This document shows positions 43,111-57,069 of a DNA stretch of 64,000 nucleotides, piece after piece. The notes beneath the pieces are model-generated. The model saw only the letters and a list, made by a program, of their open reading frames with translations. It had not been told where the DNA came from and searched no databases. A program made the translations under genes and the position numbers. The stretch is from positions 192,001 through 256,000 of the forward strand of contig CAWHAA010000002.1 in assembly GCA_963827275.1 (NCBI GenBank). Reading direction: 5' to 3'. Within the stretch, counting starts at the first letter, position 1, and every line of letters starts with the position of its first letter. Source of the stretch: an uncultured Spirochaetota bacterium. Its GTDB lineage: Bacteria; Spirochaetota; UBA4802; UBA5550.

Positions 43111-45340
43111 TTATACCTGCTTGATGATGTCCGGGGTTATCGCGGGGATATCCCTGCATCCGGTAAGGATCATCGCCTTCTGTAAATCCTTCTTGAGATA
43201 ATTGAGATAGTACGACACCCCCTCGGCCCCCATGCCGACCGCGGATATGGCGATCGGCCTACCGATGAGCACGGCGCGTGCTCCCAGGGCAAGCGCTTTC
43301 AGTATGTCCACGCCTTCGCGAAACCCGCCGTCTATTATAACAAGGACCCTGTTGTCGGTTTCGCGGACAATTTCCGCCAGGACATCCATTGACCCCATCA
43401 TCTCGTCAAGGACCCTCCCGCCGTGGTTGGACACGATGATGCCGCGGGCGCCTGCCTCGACGGCGGCTACCGCGTCCTTGACGTTCATGATGCCTTTCAG
43501 AAAAAACGGAAGGCGCGTGGAGGAGATAAGCTCTTTTAATTCGGCGAAGCTCTTCGGCCCTACCGACTGGTTTTTCATTGCCATGGTCTTGAACACGACG
43601 GCATCGATGTCCATGCCGACGGCAATCGCAGAGGCCTTTTCCGCGGCCCTGATGCGCATGATGATCTCGCCGTTATCGCTTCTCGGCTTGAAGATGGGGA
43701 TCGCTTTCCCGCCTGATTCGGAGATCGCCTGCAGGCCGATCTTGTACTTGTCGGGGGTCGCGCCGTCGCCGACGAACGCGATGGTGCCTGCCTTGATGCA
43801 CCCGCTGATGACCGCGCGGTTGTAGTCAAGCTCATCGATGGCGCCGCCCATGTTCGTGACCGTGCCCGTTATCGGGGCGGCCATGACCGGGATGGAGAGC
43901 GACAGGTCCATGAAGGAAGTCGTAGGTATCGGGCTGGGTGACGTCGTGGATCAGCCGCGTGTTGATCTTGAACCGTTTCAACGACGCGATATTCCGCCTG
44001 AACGATTCGCCCGTACCGGTGCCTCCCATTCCCGGGACACCGGTAGGGCAGTCCCTGCCGTCACAGGTTTTGCACACGTAGCAGATCTTCTTGAACCGTT
44101 CTTTCGCCGCGAGGTGGATGGTCTCCATCGAGATTTCAGATTCTTCTATCATCTCAAAATTGAGCACCTTTTTGCACTGGTCCACGCTTGCGACCGCTTC
44201 CCCGAGGGTAGATCCGACGGCTATGATGTGGCCGGCCTTTTCAACGTTGGACCGGGGCTGTATGACCTTGTCGCCCGGCTTGACATTGAGAAAGATTTCT
44301 TTTATGCCGGGGACCTTCAGCGCTTCTTCGAGTCCGGTGATCTTTTTAACTATGCCCGGCTTTGTTATTATGGCGCGCTCAATTGCTGTGCGGCTGATGA
44401 CCGGCTCGAGGTTGCCCGGCTCCTGGCCGAGTGCAACCTCGATCGCCGCCTTGATCAGGTCAACACCGCTGGAGAGGGGATAGGTGTAGGCTGACATAAA
44501 GCCGCCGGAGAGGCGCGCGGCGAGCTCGCCGATCATGGGACCGTCCTTCGTTATCTTGATATCGCCCTTTGCCGCGCCGATATCTATTCCGAGGGCGCGT
44601 ATGCCCATGGTCATAATTTCGCATGCCGCCTCCTGCACGTCGCGGGGAAGGGAAGACGGCATGTTGTGGCCTGTTTCGATGAAGTAGGGCGGGTACTCGA
44701 TGATGCGGTCCGCAACACCGGTAAAGGTGATCTCATTGTTGTAAATGATGGCATCGATCGACAGCTCAGGGCCGTCCATGTATTCTTCCATAATCAGTTC
44801 GCCGCTCGGGGACGCATTTTTTGAAAACTTGAATGCGTCGGCGAGCTGGTTCAGGTTGTCGAGGCGCATGACGCCGCGCGCGCCCATGTTGTCCGACGGT
44901 TTGATGACTACGGGGAATTTCAGGATCTTACCGGCCTTCTTCGCATCCGAGAGCGACCATACCGGGAGGAAATTTGGTGAGGGGACGCCATGTTCCTTGA
45001 AGCGCATACGCATCTTGATCTTGTTGGTCGCCGCCTCCGCGTCTTCGAATTTAATGCCGGGAAGGTTCAGCGCGTTGGCGACCGCGGCAACCGCCATAGA
45101 GGCGTCGGTGCCGGCGGTGAGCACGGCGTGTATGGGGGTCAGCTCGTTCTGGGCCTTGGCGACCCTGACGGAGCCTTCGATGTCGCGCGTGCTCATGACG
45201 ATGGGTATGTCGGCTTCCTTCATCCCCTGGGTATTCGGGTTATAGTCGGTCACCACGACCTCGTGGCCCATTTTTTTCGCGGTGAGAATCACCGGCACCT
45301 GGAGTAACCCGCCGCCTATTACCATAATTGTTTTTTTCAC
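43111..45340 (-). CDS. ATP-grasp ligase / FMN-dependent alpha-hydroxy-acid oxidase fusion (about 742 aa), one frameshift at about 43923
   Basis: ATP-grasp: IGGGLLQ, VIKPSDNMGARGV, EEYMDGPELS, ELAARLSGG. Then CYVCKTCDGRDC and an FMN barrel: APITG, LKGIM, VSNHGGRVLD, IDGGFR.G.D..KALALGA. Deleting one base restores PDTSTSFMDLSLSIPVMAAP. Confidence 0.8.
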
Positions 45341-45644: not shown

Positions 45645-46595
45645 ATGGACAGATATCTTACCATTGAAGCAGTACGTCTGACTGAAGCGGCCGCGCTCTT
45701 TGCAAGCAGGCATATGGGCAAGGGCGATGAGGAGATTACGTATCATTCGGCGTCTGACGCCATGCACAAGGTCCTTTCGACGATGGACATCGATGGTGAA
45801 ATAGTGATAGGCGCGGACAGCGCTGAAACGGCGCTGTATGACGGGGTGCAGGTCGGCAGCAAAACGGGGGGCGCTGTCGACCTTGCCGTGAAGCCGCTGG
45901 ACGGGAAGATGACCTGCGCACGCGGCGGACACAATGCGGTGTCGGCGGCGGCGGTTGGCACCAAGGGGGCGTTTTTCAAGGCCCCGTCGCTGCACATGGA
46001 CAAGATCGCGGTCGGCAAGGACGCGAAAAATATCGTGGACATCCACCAGCCGCCGGCGATCAATATCAAGCGGATCGCCCGTGCGAAAGGAAAATATATT
46101 GAGGACCTCACTGTCTGCATCCTCGACCGGAAGCGGAATGAAAAGCTGGTGGAGGAGGTGCGCAAAACCGGGGCCAAGATCAGGTTTATACGCGACGGGG
46201 ACATCACGGGCGCCGTTTCCACCGCTTTCCCCGAAAGCTCAATCGATATCCTCATGGGTATCGGCGGCGCAAAAGAGGCGATCATAGCCGCGGCGGCGCT
46301 CAAGTGCATGGACGCGGACATGCAGGCGCGGTTCGTGGACATAGGCGGCAGGGAGAAGGAGCTGCTCCGCGAGCTTGGCATCGATGACCCGGAGATGATC
46401 TTTACTCCCTCGGACATGATCCGGGGCGAAGACGTGATCGTTTCCCTCACCGGTGTAACCGACGGGGTACTGCTGCCGGGCGTGCAGTACGTTCCCGGCG
46501 GAGCGAAGACCAGCTCGATCCTGTTCAGGCAGAAGACCCATACCCTCCGGTATATCACGGCCATCCACCAATTCGATTATAAGCCGATATTTTGA
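45645..46595 (+). CDS. glpX: Class II fructose-1,6-bisphosphatase (GlpX) homologue with degenerate active site
   Basis: RLTEAAAL, MDKIAVG, LTVCILDR, GAKIRFIRDGD, MGIGG, TGVTDG. GGGAGG RBS. Confidence 0.75.
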   Translation: MDRYLTIEAVRLTEAAALFASRHMGKGDEEITYHSASDAMHKVLSTMDIDGEIVIGADSAETALYDGVQVGSKTGGAVDLAVKPLDGKMTCARGGHNAVSAAAVGTKGAFFKAPSLHMDKIAVGKDAKNIVDIHQPPAINIKRIARAKGKYIEDLTVCILDRKRNEKLVEEVRKTGAKIRFIRDGDITGAVSTAFPESSIDILMGIGGAKEAIIAAAALKCMDADMQARFVDIGGREKELLRELGIDDPEMIFTPSDMIRGEDVIVSLTGVTDGVLLPGVQYVPGGAKTSSILFRQKTHTLRYITAIHQFDYKPIF

Positions 46596-46623
46596 CGGGG
46601 CAGCGCGACACTGGTATATTGAA

Positions 46624-47544
46624 ATGAAAGACCTGGAAGAACTGCTGAATACGATTGTTATCGATATCCGGAAACAGAATTGCGAGCGGGGACCGGGAGC
46701 CATCCCGCAGTCCGACAGGTTTTACGATTATCTGACAACTACCTATTCCGTGATCCCTTACACCATCCCCAAGCTCATCAAGATACTGGTGGACACGCAT
46801 AAGATTTTCTCATTCAATACCGTTGAAGGGAACAATAAACAGCAGGTGCGAAGGGTCGAGGGATTTGTCGTCGCGGAGGGCAACATCATCAAAACGCTCC
46901 TCGAGATTTTCAGCGATGAACTGACGCGCGAATTTTCACACGAGTTCTCCACCAAGTATCCGGTCGAAAGGATAATCAAGGAATTTTTCCCGAAGCTAAA
47001 GGAGTATAACAACACGCCCCTCGGCAGGAGCGCGAATATCGTGATCAACCTGATGAGCTTGCAGGCGAACCTCGAACGGGCGATCATGCAGTTTAATCCG
47101 AAGTGGCAGGAAAAGCAGCTCAAGATCGAGATCGAGAAGACGGGCGGGCTTGCTTCGTTCATCGACAGCCAGATTTCAATCCGCGGAAAGGCGGGGAGCG
47201 CCGCTGATAACGAAAATGACAAAAACCGGCGCGTTACCGACACTCCGAAATACGAGGAATTTAAAAAATACATGAGCAAGAACACCATCGAGAAGACCCT
47301 CGTGGTGTACGGGGCGGAATTTTACTCCCGCGTCTGCTTCAGGGAATACAGGTTTTCACTGGTCCAGAAGCTCATCGAGGACGACCGAATAAACGACGCA
47401 AATGACCTTCTCATGGTGAAGAAGATGCTCAAGAAAACCCGCGAAAATTCCGACCAGGACACAAACCTGCAGCAATACGCCCTTGACATCAATGAGCTTG
47501 AAAAGGCGATCAACCAGAAAATCAAGGCGGCCGGTGCGAAATGA
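46624..47544 (+). CDS. Hypothetical protein
   Basis: 306-codon ORF with host codon bias; ATGA overlap with the next gene. Confidence 0.75.
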   Translation: MKDLEELLNTIVIDIRKQNCERGPGAIPQSDRFYDYLTTTYSVIPYTIPKLIKILVDTHKIFSFNTVEGNNKQQVRRVEGFVVAEGNIIKTLLEIFSDELTREFSHEFSTKYPVERIIKEFFPKLKEYNNTPLGRSANIVINLMSLQANLERAIMQFNPKWQEKQLKIEIEKTGGLASFIDSQISIRGKAGSAADNENDKNRRVTDTPKYEEFKKYMSKNTIEKTLVVYGAEFYSRVCFREYRFSLVQKLIEDDRINDANDLLMVKKMLKKTRENSDQDTNLQQYALDINELEKAINQKIKAAGAK

Positions 47545-51249: not shown

Positions 51250-54200
51250 ATGGCGCAATTGGAATTGACACGGTCCTTGCCATTGGCCATTATGCGCCTG
51301 CCATGGGATCAGTTGTTCAAGAAATGGATGAAGGAGATAGAGGCCCTCTTTGCCTCCCCCGCGGGATTCATCTTCCTGATTGCGCAGTGCCTGTTGCTCG
51401 GGTGGAGCTTCGGGTCGTCGGCGGGCAGCTGCAGTACCCTGAGCGGACTTATGGCGGCCGGTGATCTGCCGGCTGCATACCTGTCGCCGCTTTCGGATCT
51501 TACTGTCCCTGTTTTCAGGAGCGCGTATCTGTACCCGGCCCTGCTCCTGCCCGTTGTTGTTTCCGGTCTGCTGCGCGGAGGTTCGCCGGGCGTGTCGCTG
51601 AATTTTATAGGCCAGCCTTCAGCAATTATCCGCGGACTCGGCGCCAAATTCGGCGCGGCCGTCATATACCTCGCAGCCTCCCTCGCGCTCTCCCTGCCGG
51701 CGCTTCAGTACTGGCGCATGCTCGGGGGCAGCGTGTATGCCTCCGAGACCGCGCTTCTGTACGCGGGATATTTCCTGAACGGGGTCCTGACCATCTCAGT
51801 ATCTTTTCTTTTTGCCTCGCTGATACGAAGCAGGGCCATCGCCTCGTTCGCGTCAACAACGCTCCTGGCGCTGCCGCACCTGCTTTATTTTATCAAAGAA
51901 TGCAACGGCGCCGATTATACGCCCCTCGGGGCGATGACGCTGGAAGCGGTGTCGTCTTTTGAGCGCGGTATCGTGTCACCGGGTGCATTTCTTTATTTTA
52001 TTGTCCCGGCGATCGTTGCGTTCGCCCTTACAGTGAGCGCGCAGGTCCGGGGCAGGAAGATGAAGATGCGGGTACTTGCCGCGGCACTGGGGTTCGTGGC
52101 GGCGGTTTCCATCTCAATGATGGCCCCGGAAGCGCGCGGGTTCCTTGCTTCGCATGTCGATATATCGGACCGCTACAGTGCCCCCGCCGCTTCTTCTGTC
52201 GTCACACGGGCAAAACAGATCATCACTCTTTCTGCGCTCCCCTCCGTGTACGATGTTCCGGCGGGCGATGGGGGCGGTGCGGCCGGATGTCCTCTCTCGA
52301 TCACGGAAAAGGACCTGCGTGATATCCGGGTCGTCTACTGGGCGCTCATCCCGCTGCTGATCGGACTTATGGCAGGGGCACGCGCGGTCAGGCAGATCCG
52401 CATGCCACACGGAGCGAAGCGGGTCACGGTCATGACTGCCACCTGGCTGGCGCTGGTGCTGGCCTGCGCCCTGGCGCAGGACTTCTATATCAAGAACAGG
52501 CCATGGAAGGTCTTCCCGTCGGTCAGGGAGGTGCTGCCCCGGTGGGCGTGGGAGCGTGGAGAACCGCCCGGCGCCGGCAGCGCGCCGGAGGCCGTTCCAA
52601 AGAATATCGCCGGGACAGAAATGCCCCGTGATCCGAATTTCATCTACGCGGGTGATGGATATCAGAATCTTAACCGTTTCTTCAAGAGGCTCGCCGACCT
52701 GCAGGCGGGGCGGCGTGACACGGTCAGGATCGTGCACTACGGTGATTCCCTCATCTGGGGCGACTGCTTTTCCCGGACAATGAAGCGCCGGTTCCAGGCG
52801 GAATTCGGTGACGGGGGCCGCGGCATCGTGCCGCCGGCCGCAACCATGGCAACGGCGCTGCAGGACCATACCAATACGACGAATCCCGGCGGGTTCGACC
52901 AGCACGCCGTGCGGCACGAGTTCCGGTACCTGGGTAATTTCTATCCGGCGCCGGCGGAAAACCGGTACGTGGGGTTCACGGGCGAGGGCGCGTTTCTCCG
53001 CTCGCCGCTTTCAGAGATACACATGGAATCGCCCGCCGGCAGCCGGAAGTGGCGCCGCGTGCAGCTTTTCCTGCGGCAGCCGGCGGACGCGGCACCCGGC
53101 TCGTCGTCGTACTGCGTGCGCCTCGATCACGACGCGGGCACGGCGCGGCAGGTACTCGCCCCGGCCGGCGCATCGCCCGGCGCGGTGACATTTCTGGTAC
53201 CGCCGACGGGAACTATTACCGCCCGGTTTGAAGGCTCGGCCGGGCCGCTCCCCTCGGTTGACGCGGTCAACCTTGAAACAGAGAGCGGCGTCGCCTACAG
53301 CACGGTCGTCAGGATGGGCATACACATGGCCTGGCTGAACGCCGTACCTGAGGGACACCTGGCGCCGCTCCGCGAAATCGCTCCGGACCTGCTCATCTTC
53401 CAGTTCGGGGTGAACGAGGCCGCCTCGCTCGGCGGGTTCCCGGAGTTTACGGCGGAGACCCTGCGGGCCCAGGTGAGGGAATGGCTCGCGAAGGTAAAGC
53501 GGCTCTTCCCGGATACCGATGTCCTCGTCGTGGGACCGCCGGAACGGCTCCGCATGCTGCAGGGGGCGCTGGTCCCGATGGAGGAGACGATGACCGTGCG
53601 CAGTATCCAGCGCGAGGAGGCGGCGCGGGCCGGCATGGCCTTCTTTGATACCTACGATCTCCTCGGAGGGCCGGGGCAGATGCTGAACATGGTAACGACC
53701 GGCCTGGCCATGGACGACTACACGCACTTCACCATGCGGGGCGGGGACACGGCGGCAGGCGGGATGTACGATTCGCTCATGAACGCCTTCAGGAAGACAA
53801 ACGGGCGGCCGAAGCTCGACCTCAGGGCGGGGGAGCGGACCGCCATCATGTTCAATTCAGCGTCATACGCCTACTTCCTCGCCGTGACGGTCATCATCGT
53901 CCTCCTGATCGGCAGGCGGGCGGGGCCGCGGTTCGTGTTCCTCGCCGGCGCGTCGTATTATTTTTACACGACATGGAACGTATGGCCCGCGGCCTGCCTT
54001 GCGGTGACCACCGTGACCGATTATTCCATGGCGCTCCTCATCCACCGGGCGCGGAAGGGCGGGGGGCGGGGCTCCGGCTACCTCGCCGTGTCGCTCGCGG
54101 TCAACCTCGGCATCCTGTTTGTCCTGAAATACTTTGATTTCTTTTCCGACCTCGCGGGCAGGGCGGCCTATGCCATGGGCTGCCAGGCGTCGGTGCCGAT

Positions 54201-55254
54201 ACTGAACATCCTGCTGCCGGTCGGGATATCATTTTACACCTTCCAGTCGCTCTCCTACACCATCGACGTGTGGCGCGGCGCGATGAAGCCGACGGCCAGT
54301 CTCCTGAAATATGCGCACTACGTATCGCTTTTTACCCAGCTCCTGGCCGGGCCGATCGTGAAGGCGCGGGAGTTCCTGCCAGCCGTTAAAAACGGGGCGG
54401 GCCACTTCATGGTGACGCACGGGCATTTCTCGGCCGCACTGTTCCTCATCCTCGGGGGACTCGTCAAGAAGGCGGGCGCCGACTGGCTGGGGGGCTCCAT
54501 CGTCGACCGGGTGTACGCGAGCCCGGGCATGTTCACGCCGCTCGAGACCCTGGCGGCGGTGTACGCCTACGGGCTCCAGATATACGGCGATTTTTCCGGC
54601 TACAGCGACATCGCCATCGGGAGCGCCATGCTGCTGGGCTACAATCTCACGGAAAACTTCCGGCGTCCCTACGCCGCGGCCTCGGTGTCCGAGTTCTGGC
54701 AGCGGTGGCACATCTCGCTCGGGAACTGGCTGCGGGAGTACCTCTACATCAGCCTGGGCGGGAACCGGAAGCGGGTGCTCTTCAACCTCGGGATCACGAT
54801 GCTCCTGTGCGGGCTGTGGCACGGCGCTGCACTCCCGTTCGTGCTATGGGGGGCGTACCACGGGCTGGTCATGATCGTCGAGCGGATGTTCAACCTGAAC
54901 CGGACGACAAGAGGGAGGCCGCTCGTGCGCGGCATCAGGGTGTTCGCAACCCTGCACGTGGTCCTGTTCGGGTGGATCATCTTCAGGTCGGATTCATGGG
55001 AGACCTTTACCGCGGTCCTGCGCTCCCTGTCGCGTCTCGAGGCGGGGGCGCCGAATGTGGGCGCGCTCCTGGCCGGGGTGATGGCGCTCTTCTACGCCGT
55101 GCATTACACGCCGGTCGCGTGGAAGGAGCGGCTGAAGGCCGCGTGGGCGGGGCTCCCGGCGACCGTGCAGGGATGCGCCGCCGCGTGCATAACGATTCTC
55201 CTCTACAACGCCGCCACCGCGGACGTGAAGCCGTTTATTTACTTCCAGTTTTAA
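51250..55254 (+). CDS. Fusion of ABC-2/GldF-like permease, SGNH acyltransferase/hydrolase and MBOAT O-acyltransferase with FIYFQF tail
   Basis: Single 1334-codon ORF. N-terminal multi-TM region (KEIEALFASPAG, SFERGIV); SGNH GDS at 52741, FGVNE, DYTH; MBOAT PVGISFYTFQ, DFSGYSDIAIG, FWQRWHISL, GLWHGA. Exact start uncertain. Confidence 0.85.
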   Translation: MAQLELTRSLPLAIMRLPWDQLFKKWMKEIEALFASPAGFIFLIAQCLLLGWSFGSSAGSCSTLSGLMAAGDLPAAYLSPLSDLTVPVFRSAYLYPALLLPVVVSGLLRGGSPGVSLNFIGQPSAIIRGLGAKFGAAVIYLAASLALSLPALQYWRMLGGSVYASETALLYAGYFLNGVLTISVSFLFASLIRSRAIASFASTTLLALPHLLYFIKECNGADYTPLGAMTLEAVSSFERGIVSPGAFLYFIVPAIVAFALTVSAQVRGRKMKMRVLAAALGFVAAVSISMMAPEARGFLASHVDISDRYSAPAASSVVTRAKQIITLSALPSVYDVPAGDGGGAAGCPLSITEKDLRDIRVVYWALIPLLIGLMAGARAVRQIRMPHGAKRVTVMTATWLALVLACALAQDFYIKNRPWKVFPSVREVLPRWAWERGEPPGAGSAPEAVPKNIAGTEMPRDPNFIYAGDGYQNLNRFFKRLADLQAGRRDTVRIVHYGDSLIWGDCFSRTMKRRFQAEFGDGGRGIVPPAATMATALQDHTNTTNPGGFDQHAVRHEFRYLGNFYPAPAENRYVGFTGEGAFLRSPLSEIHMESPAGSRKWRRVQLFLRQPADAAPGSSSYCVRLDHDAGTARQVLAPAGASPGAVTFLVPPTGTITARFEGSAGPLPSVDAVNLETESGVAYSTVVRMGIHMAWLNAVPEGHLAPLREIAPDLLIFQFGVNEAASLGGFPEFTAETLRAQVREWLAKVKRLFPDTDVLVVGPPERLRMLQGALVPMEETMTVRSIQREEAARAGMAFFDTYDLLGGPGQMLNMVTTGLAMDDYTHFTMRGGDTAAGGMYDSLMNAFRKTNGRPKLDLRAGERTAIMFNSASYAYFLAVTVIIVLLIGRRAGPRFVFLAGASYYFYTTWNVWPAACLAVTTVTDYSMALLIHRARKGGGRGSGYLAVSLAVNLGILFVLKYFDFFSDLAGRAAYAMGCQASVPILNILLPVGISFYTFQSLSYTIDVWRGAMKPTASLLKYAHYVSLFTQLLAGPIVKAREFLPAVKNGAGHFMVTHGHFSAALFLILGGLVKKAGADWLGGSIVDRVYASPGMFTPLETLAAVYAYGLQIYGDFSGYSDIAIGSAMLLGYNLTENFRRPYAAASVSEFWQRWHISLGNWLREYLYISLGGNRKRVLFNLGITMLLCGLWHGAALPFVLWGAYHGLVMIVERMFNLNRTTRGRPLVRGIRVFATLHVVLFGWIIFRSDSWETFTAVLRSLSRLEAGAPNVGALLAGVMALFYAVHYTPVAWKERLKAAWAGLPATVQGCAAACITILLYNAATADVKPFIYFQF

Positions 55255-56389
55255 CCGCTGCGCCGCCGGAGGGGCTCGGCTGGACCGTGCGGAGCCGCCG
55301 CGACGGCTGCGCCTCTTCGGTTTTCGCAAGCGACGGCGTCCCTGCCGGCACGATGTGGCCGTAGCCGTCCCTGATATCGATGACGGTCTTGAACCGCTTC
55401 GACAGGTTGCGGATCAGGGCCAGGAACCCGTTCGCATGCCGCCCGGAGAGGACGTAGGGCTGGAACTTGATCTGCCGGTTCCTGCCCGCGAGCGGCACCA
55501 CCCTGATGCGCTCGAGCCGGCTCCCTGAAAAGTAGAGGCCCACCGCGATGTTGTCGCGCTCGATGGGATTGATGTAGCCGTTTATGAAGTTGCCGAGGGA
55601 GTACACGATGGGCCGGTCGCGGTACATCTCGATCCCCTGCGGCCAGTGCGGATGGTGCCCGATGACCGCGTCAGCGCCGGCGTCAATGATCGCGTGGGCC
55701 TCCGCGACCTGCTCCTTCATCGGTATGTGCGTCTGCTCGATGCCCCAGTGGAGCGAAACCACCACAATGTTGTCCTCCAGCTTGTACGCCGCGATATCGT
55801 CGCTGATCATCCGGAGGTCGAGGGGGGATATCCCCGGGCCTTCGTCAGTCGCATAATATTCCGCGGGGGGACGGTTGCAGTAGGAGAGGATGATTATATT
55901 CGTGTCGCGGAATGTTAATATGGCCGGCCGCCGCGCCCGGGCGAGGTCCCATCCGCCCCCCGTGCGGCGGATGTTCAGGCGGTCGAGCGCCGCGAGGGTG
56001 TCTTCCATCCCCTCGACGCCGTAATCCATGAGGTGGTTGTTCGACAAGGATACCGCGTCTATCTTCAGGTCTTTCAGGCACGCGGCATCGCCCGGCTTGA
56101 TGCGGAATATGAACGGCTTGTCTTCCACGGGCGTGCCGCGGTCGGTTATGGGCGATTCGAGGTTCGCGACAATGAAGTCGTACTTGAGGAGCTCTTCCTT
56201 GATTTTCCAGAAGGGGTACTCCACGCCCCTGTCGTGGATGTGGCGCTCCGCCTCGTTGGCAAGGAGGATGTCACCCACGAACAGGATGGAGAAATTCTGC
56301 GATGCCTTGCCGGCCGCATGACGGGTACCGGCCGCGAGAGCGGCCACGGCGACGATACAGATGACGGCATACAGTGTTCCGCGTTTCAT
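55235..56389 (-). CDS. CapA / PGA_cap family metallophosphatase-like protein
   Basis: FVGDILL, ANLESPIT, SNNHLMDYG, SLHWG.E, GADAVIGHHPH, YSLGNF. Confidence 0.9.
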   Translation of the reverse strand: MKRGTLYAVICIVAVAALAAGTRHAAGKASQNFSILFVGDILLANEAERHIHDRGVEYPFWKIKEELLKYDFIVANLESPITDRGTPVEDKPFIFRIKPGDAACLKDLKIDAVSLSNNHLMDYGVEGMEDTLAALDRLNIRRTGGGWDLARARRPAILTFRDTNIIILSYCNRPPAEYYATDEGPGISPLDLRMISDDIAAYKLEDNIVVVSLHWGIEQTHIPMKEQVAEAHAIIDAGADAVIGHHPHWPQGIEMYRDRPIVYSLGNFINGYINPIERDNIAVGLYFSGSRLERIRVVPLAGRNRQIKFQPYVLSGRHANGFLALIRNLSKRFKTVIDIRDGYGHIVPAGTPSLAKTEEAQPSRRLRTVQPSPSGGAAVKTGSK

Positions 56390-56513
56390 GGTGATATAAT
56401 TACATTGGCGGAGATTCGTGTTGTCAATAAATAATTCACGTATGGTGGCAGGAGCTCCCCACGGCGGGCGATCGGAACGGCCCCTTCCATCAAATGATTA
56501 AATAGCGACATAA

Positions 56514-56547
56514 TAAAAAAAAACGCCGGCTGGATGCCGGCGTTTTT
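56514..56547 (-). terminator. Intrinsic terminator of the Loa22-like gene
   Basis: AAAAAAAAACGCCGGC-TGGAT-GCCGGCGTTTTT. Confidence 0.8.
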
Positions 56548-56568
56548 GCCCCGCGAGTATGGCCGTAA

Positions 56569-57069
56569 TTACTTTTGCACGATGCCGAAGGTGACCCGGC
56601 GCTGCTCGGCCGCATTCGCGTCCGCGCTGCCCAGGGTCTCCGACGAGCCAACGCCCTTGTAGACCATCTTCGGGGAGGAGATGCCGGCCTTGCCGAGCGA
56701 ATCGTACACTGCTTTCGCGCGGTCGGTGGAAATCTTCATGTTGCCCGGCTTGTTTCCCTCGGCGGTCTCGGGGCCGCGCGCGTCAGCGTGGCCGCGGACT
56801 TCAAGCACGTACCCTTCGGGGAGATTGTTGATGATCTCCTTGATGACGGGCGCCGCGACCTTTGCCCACTTGTCCCACTCCTGCGCCGGGACCTTCGAGC
56901 TCTTGTACGCGAACCCGGTCACGGGATATTTCGCGAGCTGGGCGTTCGATGCGGAGATGGCGCCCATGTCGACCCCGGCTTTCTCGGTCTCTTTCACCTG
57001 CTCTTTCGCGCACGATGTGATAAGAAACATTCCTATGATAACTGTGATAACTATTGTTAGTTTTTTCAT
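56569..57069 (-). CDS. OmpA-domain lipoprotein, Loa22-like
   Basis: Lipobox LITSC; GFAYKS, W.K..APVIKE, LPEGY.LE..GHADA.GPE.AEG.K.GN, KG.GSSE, RRVTF. AAGGAG RBS. Confidence 0.85.
   Translation of the reverse strand: MKKLTIVITVIIGMFLITSCAKEQVKETEKAGVDMGAISASNAQLAKYPVTGFAYKSSKVPAQEWDKWAKVAAPVIKEIINNLPEGYVLEVRGHADARGPETAEGNKPGNMKISTDRAKAVYDSLGKAGISSPKMVYKGVGSSETLGSADANAAEQRRVTFGIVQK

Follow-up and report, generated by a model that had tools for sequence, protein, structure and literature searches.

Acylation of bacterial polymers has been divided into systems that pair an MBOAT protein with a separate SGNH protein and systems that fuse an AT3 domain to an SGNH domain (2025; PMC12148441); in the Discussion of the same paper, too, MBOAT systems are said to rely on an SGNH protein that is separate. 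Attempts to reconstitute the transfer from PatA to PatB failed owing to non-specific labelling (PMC12148441). The esterase Ape1 has GDS(H/F) as its motif I (PMC1199599) and carries an inserted domain labelled CBM35 (PMC12148441, Discussion). Bacteroides species O-acetylate their peptidoglycan with gene clusters that lack patB (PMC1199599), to the extent of 69% in B. fragilis and 27% in B. thetaiotaomicron (PMC1199599, Table 1). To the initial annotation of the locus described here, no described protein with its architecture (a permease-like region, SGNH, MBOAT and Tyr tail in one chain) was known, and literature searches found no SGNH-MBOAT fusion.

Reading frame and start codon

The locus lies in the window, by which is meant the whole 64,000-nucleotide stretch of DNA analysed, from an uncultured Spirochaetota bacterium. 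An open reading frame of 1334 codons, without an internal stop, runs from 51250 to 55254 on the forward strand, as do all the features given below. This uninterrupted frame is as first reported, and only the start differs. Residue numbers are those of the 1334-codon frame counted from 51250. The five DNA runs covering 51310/51311 (from five studies; related strains about 96-98% alike) all lack a base found there in the window; this surplus base is an instance of the indel errors noted at the outset. Its removal brings ATG 51303 into frame. This ATG is also in frame in homologue P0002 (97% identical), and the pattern upstream of the start ATG is common to 8 of 10 relatives. The likely true start codon is therefore 51303-51305, which would give a protein of 1316 aa, and codons 1-21 of the listed frame are likely not real. 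Were the extra base real in this strain, ATG 51292 would be the alternative start, with a product of 1320 aa.

The SGNH-MBOAT fusion is real and is neither chance nor an artefact of assembly, because the 120 homologues listed include at least 27 longer than 1150 aa, 10 of the 16 same-genus genomes have open frames of 1314-1366 aa with no stop within the match, and gap-free contigs of related-strain DNA span 51709-55438 (run X1) and 52139-55364 (run X2). Between them these contigs bridge both domain junctions, for which a check against accurate reads had been advised. RNA runs X20, X23 and X24 gave short pieces only. The 27 long homologues come from several sources. An internal start for the MBOAT at ATG 53848, raised earlier as a caveat, was rejected: among 11 genomes, a single one has ATG at this codon and another has TTG.

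The catalytic core

The ninth transmembrane (TM) helix, a signal anchor followed by a linker (52405-52629), matches the N-terminal end of family members of 950 aa and leads into an Ape1-like SGNH domain (52630-53799), recognized by phmmer, Foldseek and conservation. The GDS motif starts at residue 498 (nt 52741), making S500 the catalytic Ser; the block II residue is G690, the GxN motif occupies residues 720-722 (N722), and D823 and H826 lie at nt 53716-53727. An MBOAT domain of AlgI/PatA type (53845-55230; Pfam, conservation and structure match) carries N1136 and the catalytic H1191 (nt 54820), the latter aligning with the WHG motif of DltB. The C-terminal Tyr acyl-shuttle motif with the stop codon (55231-55254), assigned from conservation of the tail in homologues, reads PFIYFQF (nt 55231-55251), with Y1331 at nt 55240. 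The GDS, GxN, DxxH, MBOAT His and tail motifs stand where the initial annotation had placed them. Pfam MBOAT matches residues 1014-1215 (E 1.5e-26; 93.9 bits against a cut-off of 27) and Lipase_GDSL_2 matches residues 702-830 (E 1.8e-6), below its own cut-off. With an MBOAT as its membrane domain, the protein matches no AT3 domain at an E of up to 1. In place of the separately encoded SGNH partner of AlgI/PatA-type systems, the SGNH domain is fused to the MBOAT in frame.

Of 118 alignment rows, 115-118 retain the catalytic Ser, Asn, Asp and His, the MBOAT His and the tail Tyr (114-118 for S500, G690, N722, D823 and H826 of the SGNH domain; 116 for H1191; 115 for Y1331), and the C-terminus is FIYFQF or FIYFRF in 107 of the 120 listed homologues. 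Block II, its position set by alignment to 4K3U, has Gly in 114 rows, Ser in three and Asn in one. The catalytic domains have a mean identity of 69-77% and a dN/dS of 0.08-0.09.

The initial annotation missed the class of the SGNH domain, which on its sequence and modelled fold is of the Ape1 type, esterase-like and CBM35-bearing, and not of the PatB, AlgJ or DltD type. Against Ape1 (4K3U), phmmer gives an E of 8.8e-17 and Foldseek an E of 1e-19, with a TM-score of 0.87-0.89 over the target and an alignment that spans the whole Ape1 chain. The strands of the model and the 4K3U alignment place an inserted beta-sandwich (52867-53280, limits approximate) where Ape1 has its CBM35. The DUF459 profile scores 12.8 bits, under its cut-off of 27.2, and finds weak matches in 9 of 28 family members (best E 0.0019); PatB is absent among the rows listed by Foldseek for the whole 949-aa model. 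Motif I is GDSL in this protein, and GDS is followed by H in none and by F in two of the 226 fused proteins, out of 236 examined, in which the motif could be read.

In the model nine TM helices precede the SGNH domain, and the charges of the loops alternate according to the positive-inside rule (net +4.8 before TM9), so the domain is predicted to be periplasmic. The modelled C-terminal end consists of a TM helix, a peripheral helix, a further TM helix and the tail, the same arrangement as in PatA, where the Tyr is periplasmic (PMC12148441). A complex prediction with the MBOAT half and the SGNH half scored 0.00, a value informative in neither direction.

The reading we favour, with modest conviction, is that of a single-chain acetyl relay onto an envelope glycan. 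By analogy with PatA/PatB (PMC12148441), acetyl from cytoplasmic acetyl-CoA would be handled by H1191 of the MBOAT, moved to the protein's own C-terminal Y1331, passed to S500 of the predicted periplasmic Ape1-like domain and delivered to the glycan, most likely peptidoglycan. The CBM35-type insert and the Bacteroides clusters (PMC1199599) point to peptidoglycan, with chances about even against another glycan. The N-terminal module, a decayed transporter subunit, would likely serve only as a membrane anchor, without transport. The frame, the domain order and the conserved residues uphold the one-chain relay, SGNH then MBOAT with a Tyr tail, that was proposed at first, its activity being predicted.

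The N-terminal module

The region ahead of TM9 had been called ABC-2/GldF-like with a collapsed GldG-like remnant, and the first of these descriptions has held. TM1-6 (residues 22-266; 51313-52047) form a decayed core of an ABC-2 (type V) permease, assigned from hhalign and a match to NosY. The source, from profile comparison, is a 437-aa ABC-2 permease belonging to an ATPase-permease-lectin cassette: hhalign gives a probability of 100 (E 3.3e-41) against this donor family and 96 (E 2.4e-9) against GldF orthologues. The modelled module matches NosY with a Z of 17.4 and an rmsd of 3.1 Å over 226 aligned residues, a six-helix type V fold, and its structure matches include KpsM, Wzm and TarG; Foldseek alone gives a weak result for this fold (E 0.27). 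Duplication of the genome's own GldF-like gene was rejected as an origin, the donor profile scoring the module at 130 bits and that gene at 66.

The second description was right in kind but wrong in source. TM7, a short periplasmic loop and TM8 (52048-52404) are, by alignment to the donor, the remnant of a mostly deleted periplasmic module, which comes from the compact 437-aa permease family. The ABC_transp_aux and GldG periplasmic domains gave no significant profile match, only their terminal helices aligning (E 0.04-0.7), and GldG was rejected as the direct source. Partly kept are the Asp that follows TM7 and the GxPL motif that precedes TM8 (D283 in 16, G396 in 23 and P417 in 27 of 28 rows), while D316 and R318 are deleted in all 28.

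An acidic residue in the TM2-TM3 coupling loop has a role in working ABC-2 permeases. Here this cytoplasmic loop is eroded and modelled with low confidence, and the Glu found in it in 40 of 50 donor rows occurs in none of the 26 fused rows that cover the position. The module has a dN/dS of 0.25 against about 0.08 for the catalytic domains (11 genomes) and 0.03 for the intact GldF-like gene of the genome, and evolves roughly eight times faster than the latter.

Purifying selection on the module and its kept fold are more than a plain anchor might need, and count against the anchor reading. They would suit the same relay with a module that has taken up a new, ATP-independent job, such as dimerizing the enzyme, docking it on the machinery that builds the cell wall or offering it an acceptor linked to lipid. 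Membrane domains of type V ABC transporters function as dimers, and the dN/dS across the 11 genomes is far below 1; the module stays in frame in all 12 long-form genomes, with its structural Gly, Pro and Trp residues kept and its fold intact in the model (pLDDT 86). Its mean identity, however, is only 31-40%, compared with 69-77% in the catalytic domains, homologue P0028 has lost a large part of it and P0011 and P0023-P0025 smaller parts, and most of the family (93 of the 120 listed homologues) does without it altogether. A new job for the module is thus unlikely, and the decayed anchor remains our preferred reading.

The core family and the role of its SGNH domain

Anchor, SGNH domain, MBOAT and Tyr tail together make up a core of about 950-1000 aa, which is a widespread family, with hundreds of proteins in Spirochaetota and Bacteroidales, that the initial annotation had overlooked. 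Within the genus of the window the gene is absent from 6 of 16 genomes. Among 80 Bacteroidales-type loci, taken in order of similarity to a fused-clade query, 70 carry the fusion without a further SGNH gene in the DNA examined, three have an SGNH and an MBOAT gene as a pair, and in two complete and two cut-off loci the MBOAT gene is preceded by two SGNH genes. In a quick SGNH tree with long branches, the fused domain groups with the first SGNH gene of these split SGNH-SGNH-MBOAT clusters and not with the second, which bears GDSH. This grouping, together with the gene order, suggests that the 'esterase-like' Ape1-type subfamily may be the missing transferase where PatB is absent, rather than an esterase. 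The mapping of the split-cluster genes to ape1b and ape1c rests on gene order, and the length difference given for 1c (PMC1199599) was not seen among the split-cluster genes compared. The second gene, with GDSH as in solved esterases, is the one dropped in fused loci. One query, run against five genomes, found no separate GDSH-type esterase, and a word-limited search of 7996 candidates returned only three stand-alone close SGNH homologues (23-27% identity) and one partial fusion.

Against a transferase stand the Gly at block II in nearly every row and the closest solved structures, which are proven esterases. PatB and pneumococcal OatA replace this Gly, and the replacement has been tied to transferase activity (PMC12148441), but OatA of Staphylococcus aureus is a transferase that keeps it (reviewed in PMC9487903), so its retention is not decisive. 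No cell-wall or polysaccharide genes are consistently linked to the gene, which counts against the assigned role.

The chain could instead join a writer to an eraser, with the SGNH domain acting as an Ape1-like O-acetylesterase and the MBOAT Tyr feeding a different, separately encoded transferase. Such a division would agree with the best structural matches, Ape1 of N. meningitidis and C. jejuni with their inserted carbohydrate-binding domain, with the kept Gly, and with DUF459 (PatB-family) matches, not linked to the locus, in 4 of the 5 genomes searched, two of which have strong ones. The window's own genome, though, yields a weak match (30 bits) and genome G028 none; no second SGNH gene lies at the 70 fused loci or beside the 12 long-form spirochaete loci, and the gene that was dropped is the GDSH one. 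A futile cycle would also be the likely result of placing an esterase beside an acetyl-Tyr donor. We consider this arrangement distinctly unlikely, and retain the SGNH domain as the putative transferase of the relay.

Donor cassette, history and comparison with known systems

None of 29 donor cassette loci contains MBOAT, SGNH or other acetylation genes. The cognate ATPase of the cassette was not found in the 12 fusion genomes (79-99% complete), where its profile scores at best 158-176 bits against 350 in a held-out donor genome, and no ATPase gene is present in the 12 long-form loci. In genome G028 a decayed lectin gene (E 8.7e-20, 21% identity) lies directly downstream of the fusion. The likely history is that an SGNH-MBOAT gene for 950 aa came to stand in the cassette, flanked by its permease gene and its lectin gene, and was then fused in frame to the permease, with loss of the ATPase and, later, of the lectin gene. 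A functional link to the convergent capA gene was rejected and the neighbourhood taken as probably incidental, since in three of the four gene-lacking genomes read tal stands next to capA on one strand; the fourth is rearranged, and G005 and G006 were not among the four.

The initial annotation had suggested that polymer export is coupled to acetylation and had advised a search for a partner ABC ATPase. The module would then be a working permease that borrows an ATPase, for example a GldA-like one, to export the polymer under acetylation. Its type V fold, KpsM, Wzm and TarG among its matches and a GldA-like ATPase gene elsewhere in the fusion genomes speak for this, but that ATPase has an intact permease of its own in 31 of 31 genomes (91% mean identity). 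Loss of the coupling Glu in an ill-modelled loop, the failure to find the cognate ATPase at the loci or in the genomes, a donor cassette free of acetylation genes and the absence of the module from most relatives make export coupling very improbable. That the long frame is an assembly artefact, or the MBOAT made separately, is largely refuted despite the indel at 51310/51311, given the long homologues of several sources, the contigs across both junctions, the ATG in a single genome and a dN/dS below 1 in every segment.

The SGNH-MBOAT family fills the missing cell in the division of acylation systems, and a fusion would make the full relay accessible in a single protein. The fusion also marks out the first SGNH gene as candidate transferase of the patB-less Bacteroides clusters, which, if true, would revise the view that takes Gly at block II and CBM35 as marks of esterases. 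The N-terminal module is a traceable case of an enzyme that captured and eroded an ABC transporter subunit, the third gene of the cassette still adjoining it in one genome. A bolder synthesis, offered tentatively and with an expectation well below even, is that CBM35-bearing SGNH domains of Ape1 fold that have the canonical oxyanion Gly form a second peptidoglycan O-acetyltransferase class, a substitute for PatB in Bacteroidota and spirochaetes whose own carbohydrate-binding module would aim acetylation, and that the captured permease is an ATP-independent scaffold dimerizing the enzyme or passing on a lipid-linked substrate.

Among known systems, the GldF/GldG and NosY-type ABC-2 (type V) permeases share the six-helix fold and sequence profile of the N-terminal module, but here the coupling-loop Glu, the periplasmic domain and the cognate ATPase are missing. 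The AT3-SGNH fusions OatA, OafA and OafB likewise join a membrane acyltransferase with a Tyr intermediate to an SGNH domain in one chain, although theirs is an AT3 fold that precedes the SGNH domain and has its Tyr in a loop, whereas here the SGNH domain comes first, the membrane domain is an MBOAT and the Tyr is C-terminal. Ape1 (PDB 4K3U, 8GKD/8GLD) resembles the SGNH domain over its whole chain, inserted beta-sandwich and block II Gly included, but is a separate esterase with GDSH, while the domain here shows GDSL/I/Q/M, has a TM helix as its anchor and is fused to an MBOAT. PatA and PatB of Neisseria and Campylobacter (PMC12148441) have the MBOAT catalytic His, the C-terminal Tyr hexapeptide (FIYANF in PatA, PMC12148441; FIYFQF here) and the periplasmic SGNH domain, but as two proteins instead of one chain, and PatB is of DUF459 type, with the block II Gly replaced and no carbohydrate-binding module, where the present domain has both the Gly and the insert. 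The Bacteroides ape1b-ape1c-pat cluster (PMC1199599) also has an SGNH gene upstream of the MBOAT gene and no ape2 or patB; by comparison, the middle gene is absent here and the first is joined in one chain with the MBOAT.

The SGNH-MBOAT core and its predicted relay

The open reading frame at window positions 51250-55254 (+) combines a permease-like N-terminal module, an SGNH domain, an MBOAT and a C-terminal Tyr tail. Its core (residues 386-1334) belongs to a large, apparently undescribed family. Residues 430-1334 matched 502 proteins among 8000 scored candidates; the 120 listed, named as Spirochaetota or Leptospiraceae, include 27 of more than 1150 aa and 93 shorter ones. Searching with P0110, a distant member, gave 824 proteins out of 7994 candidates, and nearly all of its 120 listed matches (Bacteroidales, with one Chloroflexota label) have both domains. 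Automatic annotations of homologues already name both. The SGNH region is matched in 23 of 81 whole genomes, the window's own included. The fusion frame is open in 10 of 16 same-genus genomes (1314-1366 aa) and in G028, from a different genus (1233 aa), and in 11 of the 81 the match lies in proteins of ~950-990 aa. Genomes G022 and G042 have three matches apiece, and L049:7147-13023 in G022 carries two 950-aa SGNH-MBOAT genes in tandem. The window's genome has nine further MBOAT genes (contigs C4, C7, C8, C9 and C10); eight end in the Tyr motif and most are followed by a separate partner gene.

S500, N722, D823, H826, the MBOAT H1191 and the tail Y1331 are each found in 115-118 of 118 aligned proteins, and the initial annotation had placed its motifs correctly within the frame. 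Pfam recognizes the MBOAT (E 1.5e-26), with a GDSL match below threshold, and with 11 genomes compared, dN/dS is 0.087 in the SGNH domain and 0.076 in the MBOAT. The top Foldseek match to an AlphaFold model of the core (pLDDT 89.8, pTM 0.70) was Ape1 of N. meningitidis (E 1e-19; over the target, TM-score 0.87-0.89), followed by C. jejuni Ape1 and DltB in that order, and a sequence search was concordant. From this match the SGNH domain is predicted to include, like Ape1, an inserted beta-sandwich; according to PMC12148441, that of Ape1 is a family 35 carbohydrate-binding module, which PatB lacks. Identity with PatB was rejected on this insert, on the block II Gly (retained in 114 of 118 rows) and on a DUF459 score of 12.8 bits, the cut-off being 27.2.

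Nine membrane helices are modelled in the N-terminal part (pLDDT 86.1, pTM 0.86), and the net loop charges alternate in sign along them (+1.1, -0.7, +0.1, -0.6, +1.8, -0.8, +2.9, -2.0 and +4.8; 25-28 rows). The predicted topology therefore has the N-terminus inside, TM9 running outward and the SGNH domain in the periplasm. We think it somewhat better than an even chance that the acetyl group would pass from His to Tyr to Ser inside one chain, with the N-terminal module as a relic anchor. Chances are about even that the putative acceptor is peptidoglycan. The long form is flanked by genes for a transaldolase and, convergently, a CapA-family protein, each in at least 11 of 12 loci, but as these two genes are adjacent in three genomes without the fusion, they are uninformative on substrate. 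In the window, the CapA/PGA_cap-family gene (55235-56389, -) runs antiparallel to the fusion and shares its final 20 bases. Genes of ~566 and ~367 aa present in most same-genus relatives are absent at 46595-46624 and 56389-56569.

The N-terminal module and its origin

A search of 1.84 billion proteins with a profile of 12 N-terminal modules yielded 675 relatives; among those not fused, the best matches are ABC-2 permeases of 423-462 aa, here the donor family (profile-profile probability 100, E 3.3e-41). Foldseek alone gave weak matches; the model aligned best with NosY (Z 17.4; rmsd 3.1 A over 226 aligned positions), and further type V ABC membrane domains ranked below it. G33, P83, W138, G142, G143, G156, G225 and P417, all structural residues, are retained in 25-27 of 28 rows. 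Mean identity of the module is 31-40% and dN/dS ~0.25 in 11 genomes, in which an intact GldF-like gene has 91% and 0.03. The same relay with a repurposed module is fairly unlikely.

The donor cassette (29 loci in diverse bacteria, L121-L149, e.g. L127:307-3019) encodes a short ATPase, a 437-aa permease that has a small periplasmic domain, and a secreted lectin-like protein. The ATPase gene lies directly upstream of the permease in 27 loci and the lectin gene downstream in 24, the exceptions being cut by contig ends; none of the 29 has an MBOAT or SGNH match. Hosts include Deltaproteobacteria, WOR-3, Aminicenantes, Gammaproteobacteria and Nitrospiria, and the lectin-like protein is 58-80% identical across distant phyla. 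Directly after the fusion in G028 is a decayed lectin gene (L041:11390-12217; E 8.7e-20 with a profile built without it), 21% identical to a family otherwise at 58-80%; no copy was found in the rest of the 81 genomes, and no unfused permease in any of 81 relatives. On the simplest reading, the enzyme gene would have come inside the cassette and then fused to the permease. Elsewhere in the donor family, permeases carry C-terminal haem-binding (P0150, P0154, P0194) or lectin domains, and L140:1-2679 encodes a PEP-utilising enzyme fused to the lectin-like domain.

Related gene clusters, and the rival readings: esterase, export, artefact

Out of 579 confirmed metagenome loci we surveyed the top 80, many of them short, in a ranking by similarity to a fused-clade query. 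Seventy carry the fusion, and no further SGNH gene lies within their available DNA; two are cut inside the gene, one has a lone SGNH gene near the DNA end, three have SGNH and MBOAT pairs, and four have two consecutive SGNH genes, two of these complete with an MBOAT gene. The last resemble the Bacteroides order ape1b-ape1c-pat, without ape2, where peptidoglycan O-acetylation is 27-69% (PMC1199599); the ape1b/1c labels are from gene order only. A quickly built tree of 42 domains with flagged long branches (four rows of unreadable motif skipped, one mis-cut row trimmed) groups the fused SGNH domains with those of the first gene in clusters of three, separately from those of the second. The second gene has GDSH, as do solved esterases; among fused proteins, all 226 whose motif could be read lack it. 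That the fused SGNH domain, for all its likeness to Ape1, is an esterase tethered to the MBOAT is unlikely. We infer that the product of the first cluster gene would accept the acyl group from the MBOAT and transfer it, the second being a dispensable esterase, and the core family makes the missing-PatB question testable.

The initial annotation had suggested that acetylation is coupled to polymer export, as an exporter-like module might imply; we consider this very unlikely. A TM2-TM3 Glu, which we take to be part of the ATPase-coupling helix, is found in 40 of 50 donors versus 0 of 26 covering fusion rows, H144 and W193 are nearly lost and the donor periplasmic domain is deleted. The cassette ATPase profile, which gave 350 bits with a held-out donor genome, reached at most 158-176 bits in all 12 fusion genomes, its best matches there being GldA-like genes, and the cassette's own ATPase was not found in them. 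The window genome's GldA-like ATPase (L002:6309-7136; G000:C4:566287-567135) has 276 aa versus 308-337 in 20 relatives, with an apparent frameshift past residue ~223 that is probably another assembly indel.

The 1334 codons contain no stop, and with long homologues, open frames in relatives and related-strain contigs crossing both junctions gap-free (X1 51709-55438, X2 52139-55364, X5 as two pieces), the long frame is almost certainly no artefact. One base at 51310/51311 is missing in all five related-strain DNA runs covering the 5' end, so ATG 51303 is the likely start, giving a probable protein of 1316 aa; as these are other strains, the extra base is an assembly error or peculiar to the window's strain. 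At 51288-51305, a short motif ~11-16 bases before this ATG is common to eight of ten relatives; no Shine-Dalgarno sequence is evident, and the motif may be a -10 element from which an almost leaderless mRNA starts. The proposed internal MBOAT start falls away, ATG 53848 being an ATG in one of 11 genomes and the preceding purine run coding for a Gly/Glu/Lys stretch. Overlapping frames of 502 and 266 aa at 43111-45340, one of ~760-780 aa in relatives, reflect a probable frameshift error.

Comparison with known systems

In line with the initial annotation, literature searches turned up no description of an SGNH-MBOAT fusion; a passing mention, e.g. in Dlt work, is possible. Passages of PMC9558356 and PMC9487903 mention none. 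PatA has a periplasmic N-terminus, and a closing series of TM, peripheral helix and TM brings its Tyr back to the periplasm (PMC12148441); the core model predicts the same C-terminal helices. That source divides known systems into an MBOAT with a separate SGNH protein and an AT3-SGNH fusion. The present protein differs from the former in having both domains in one chain, and from the latter in that its membrane part is an MBOAT rather than AT3.
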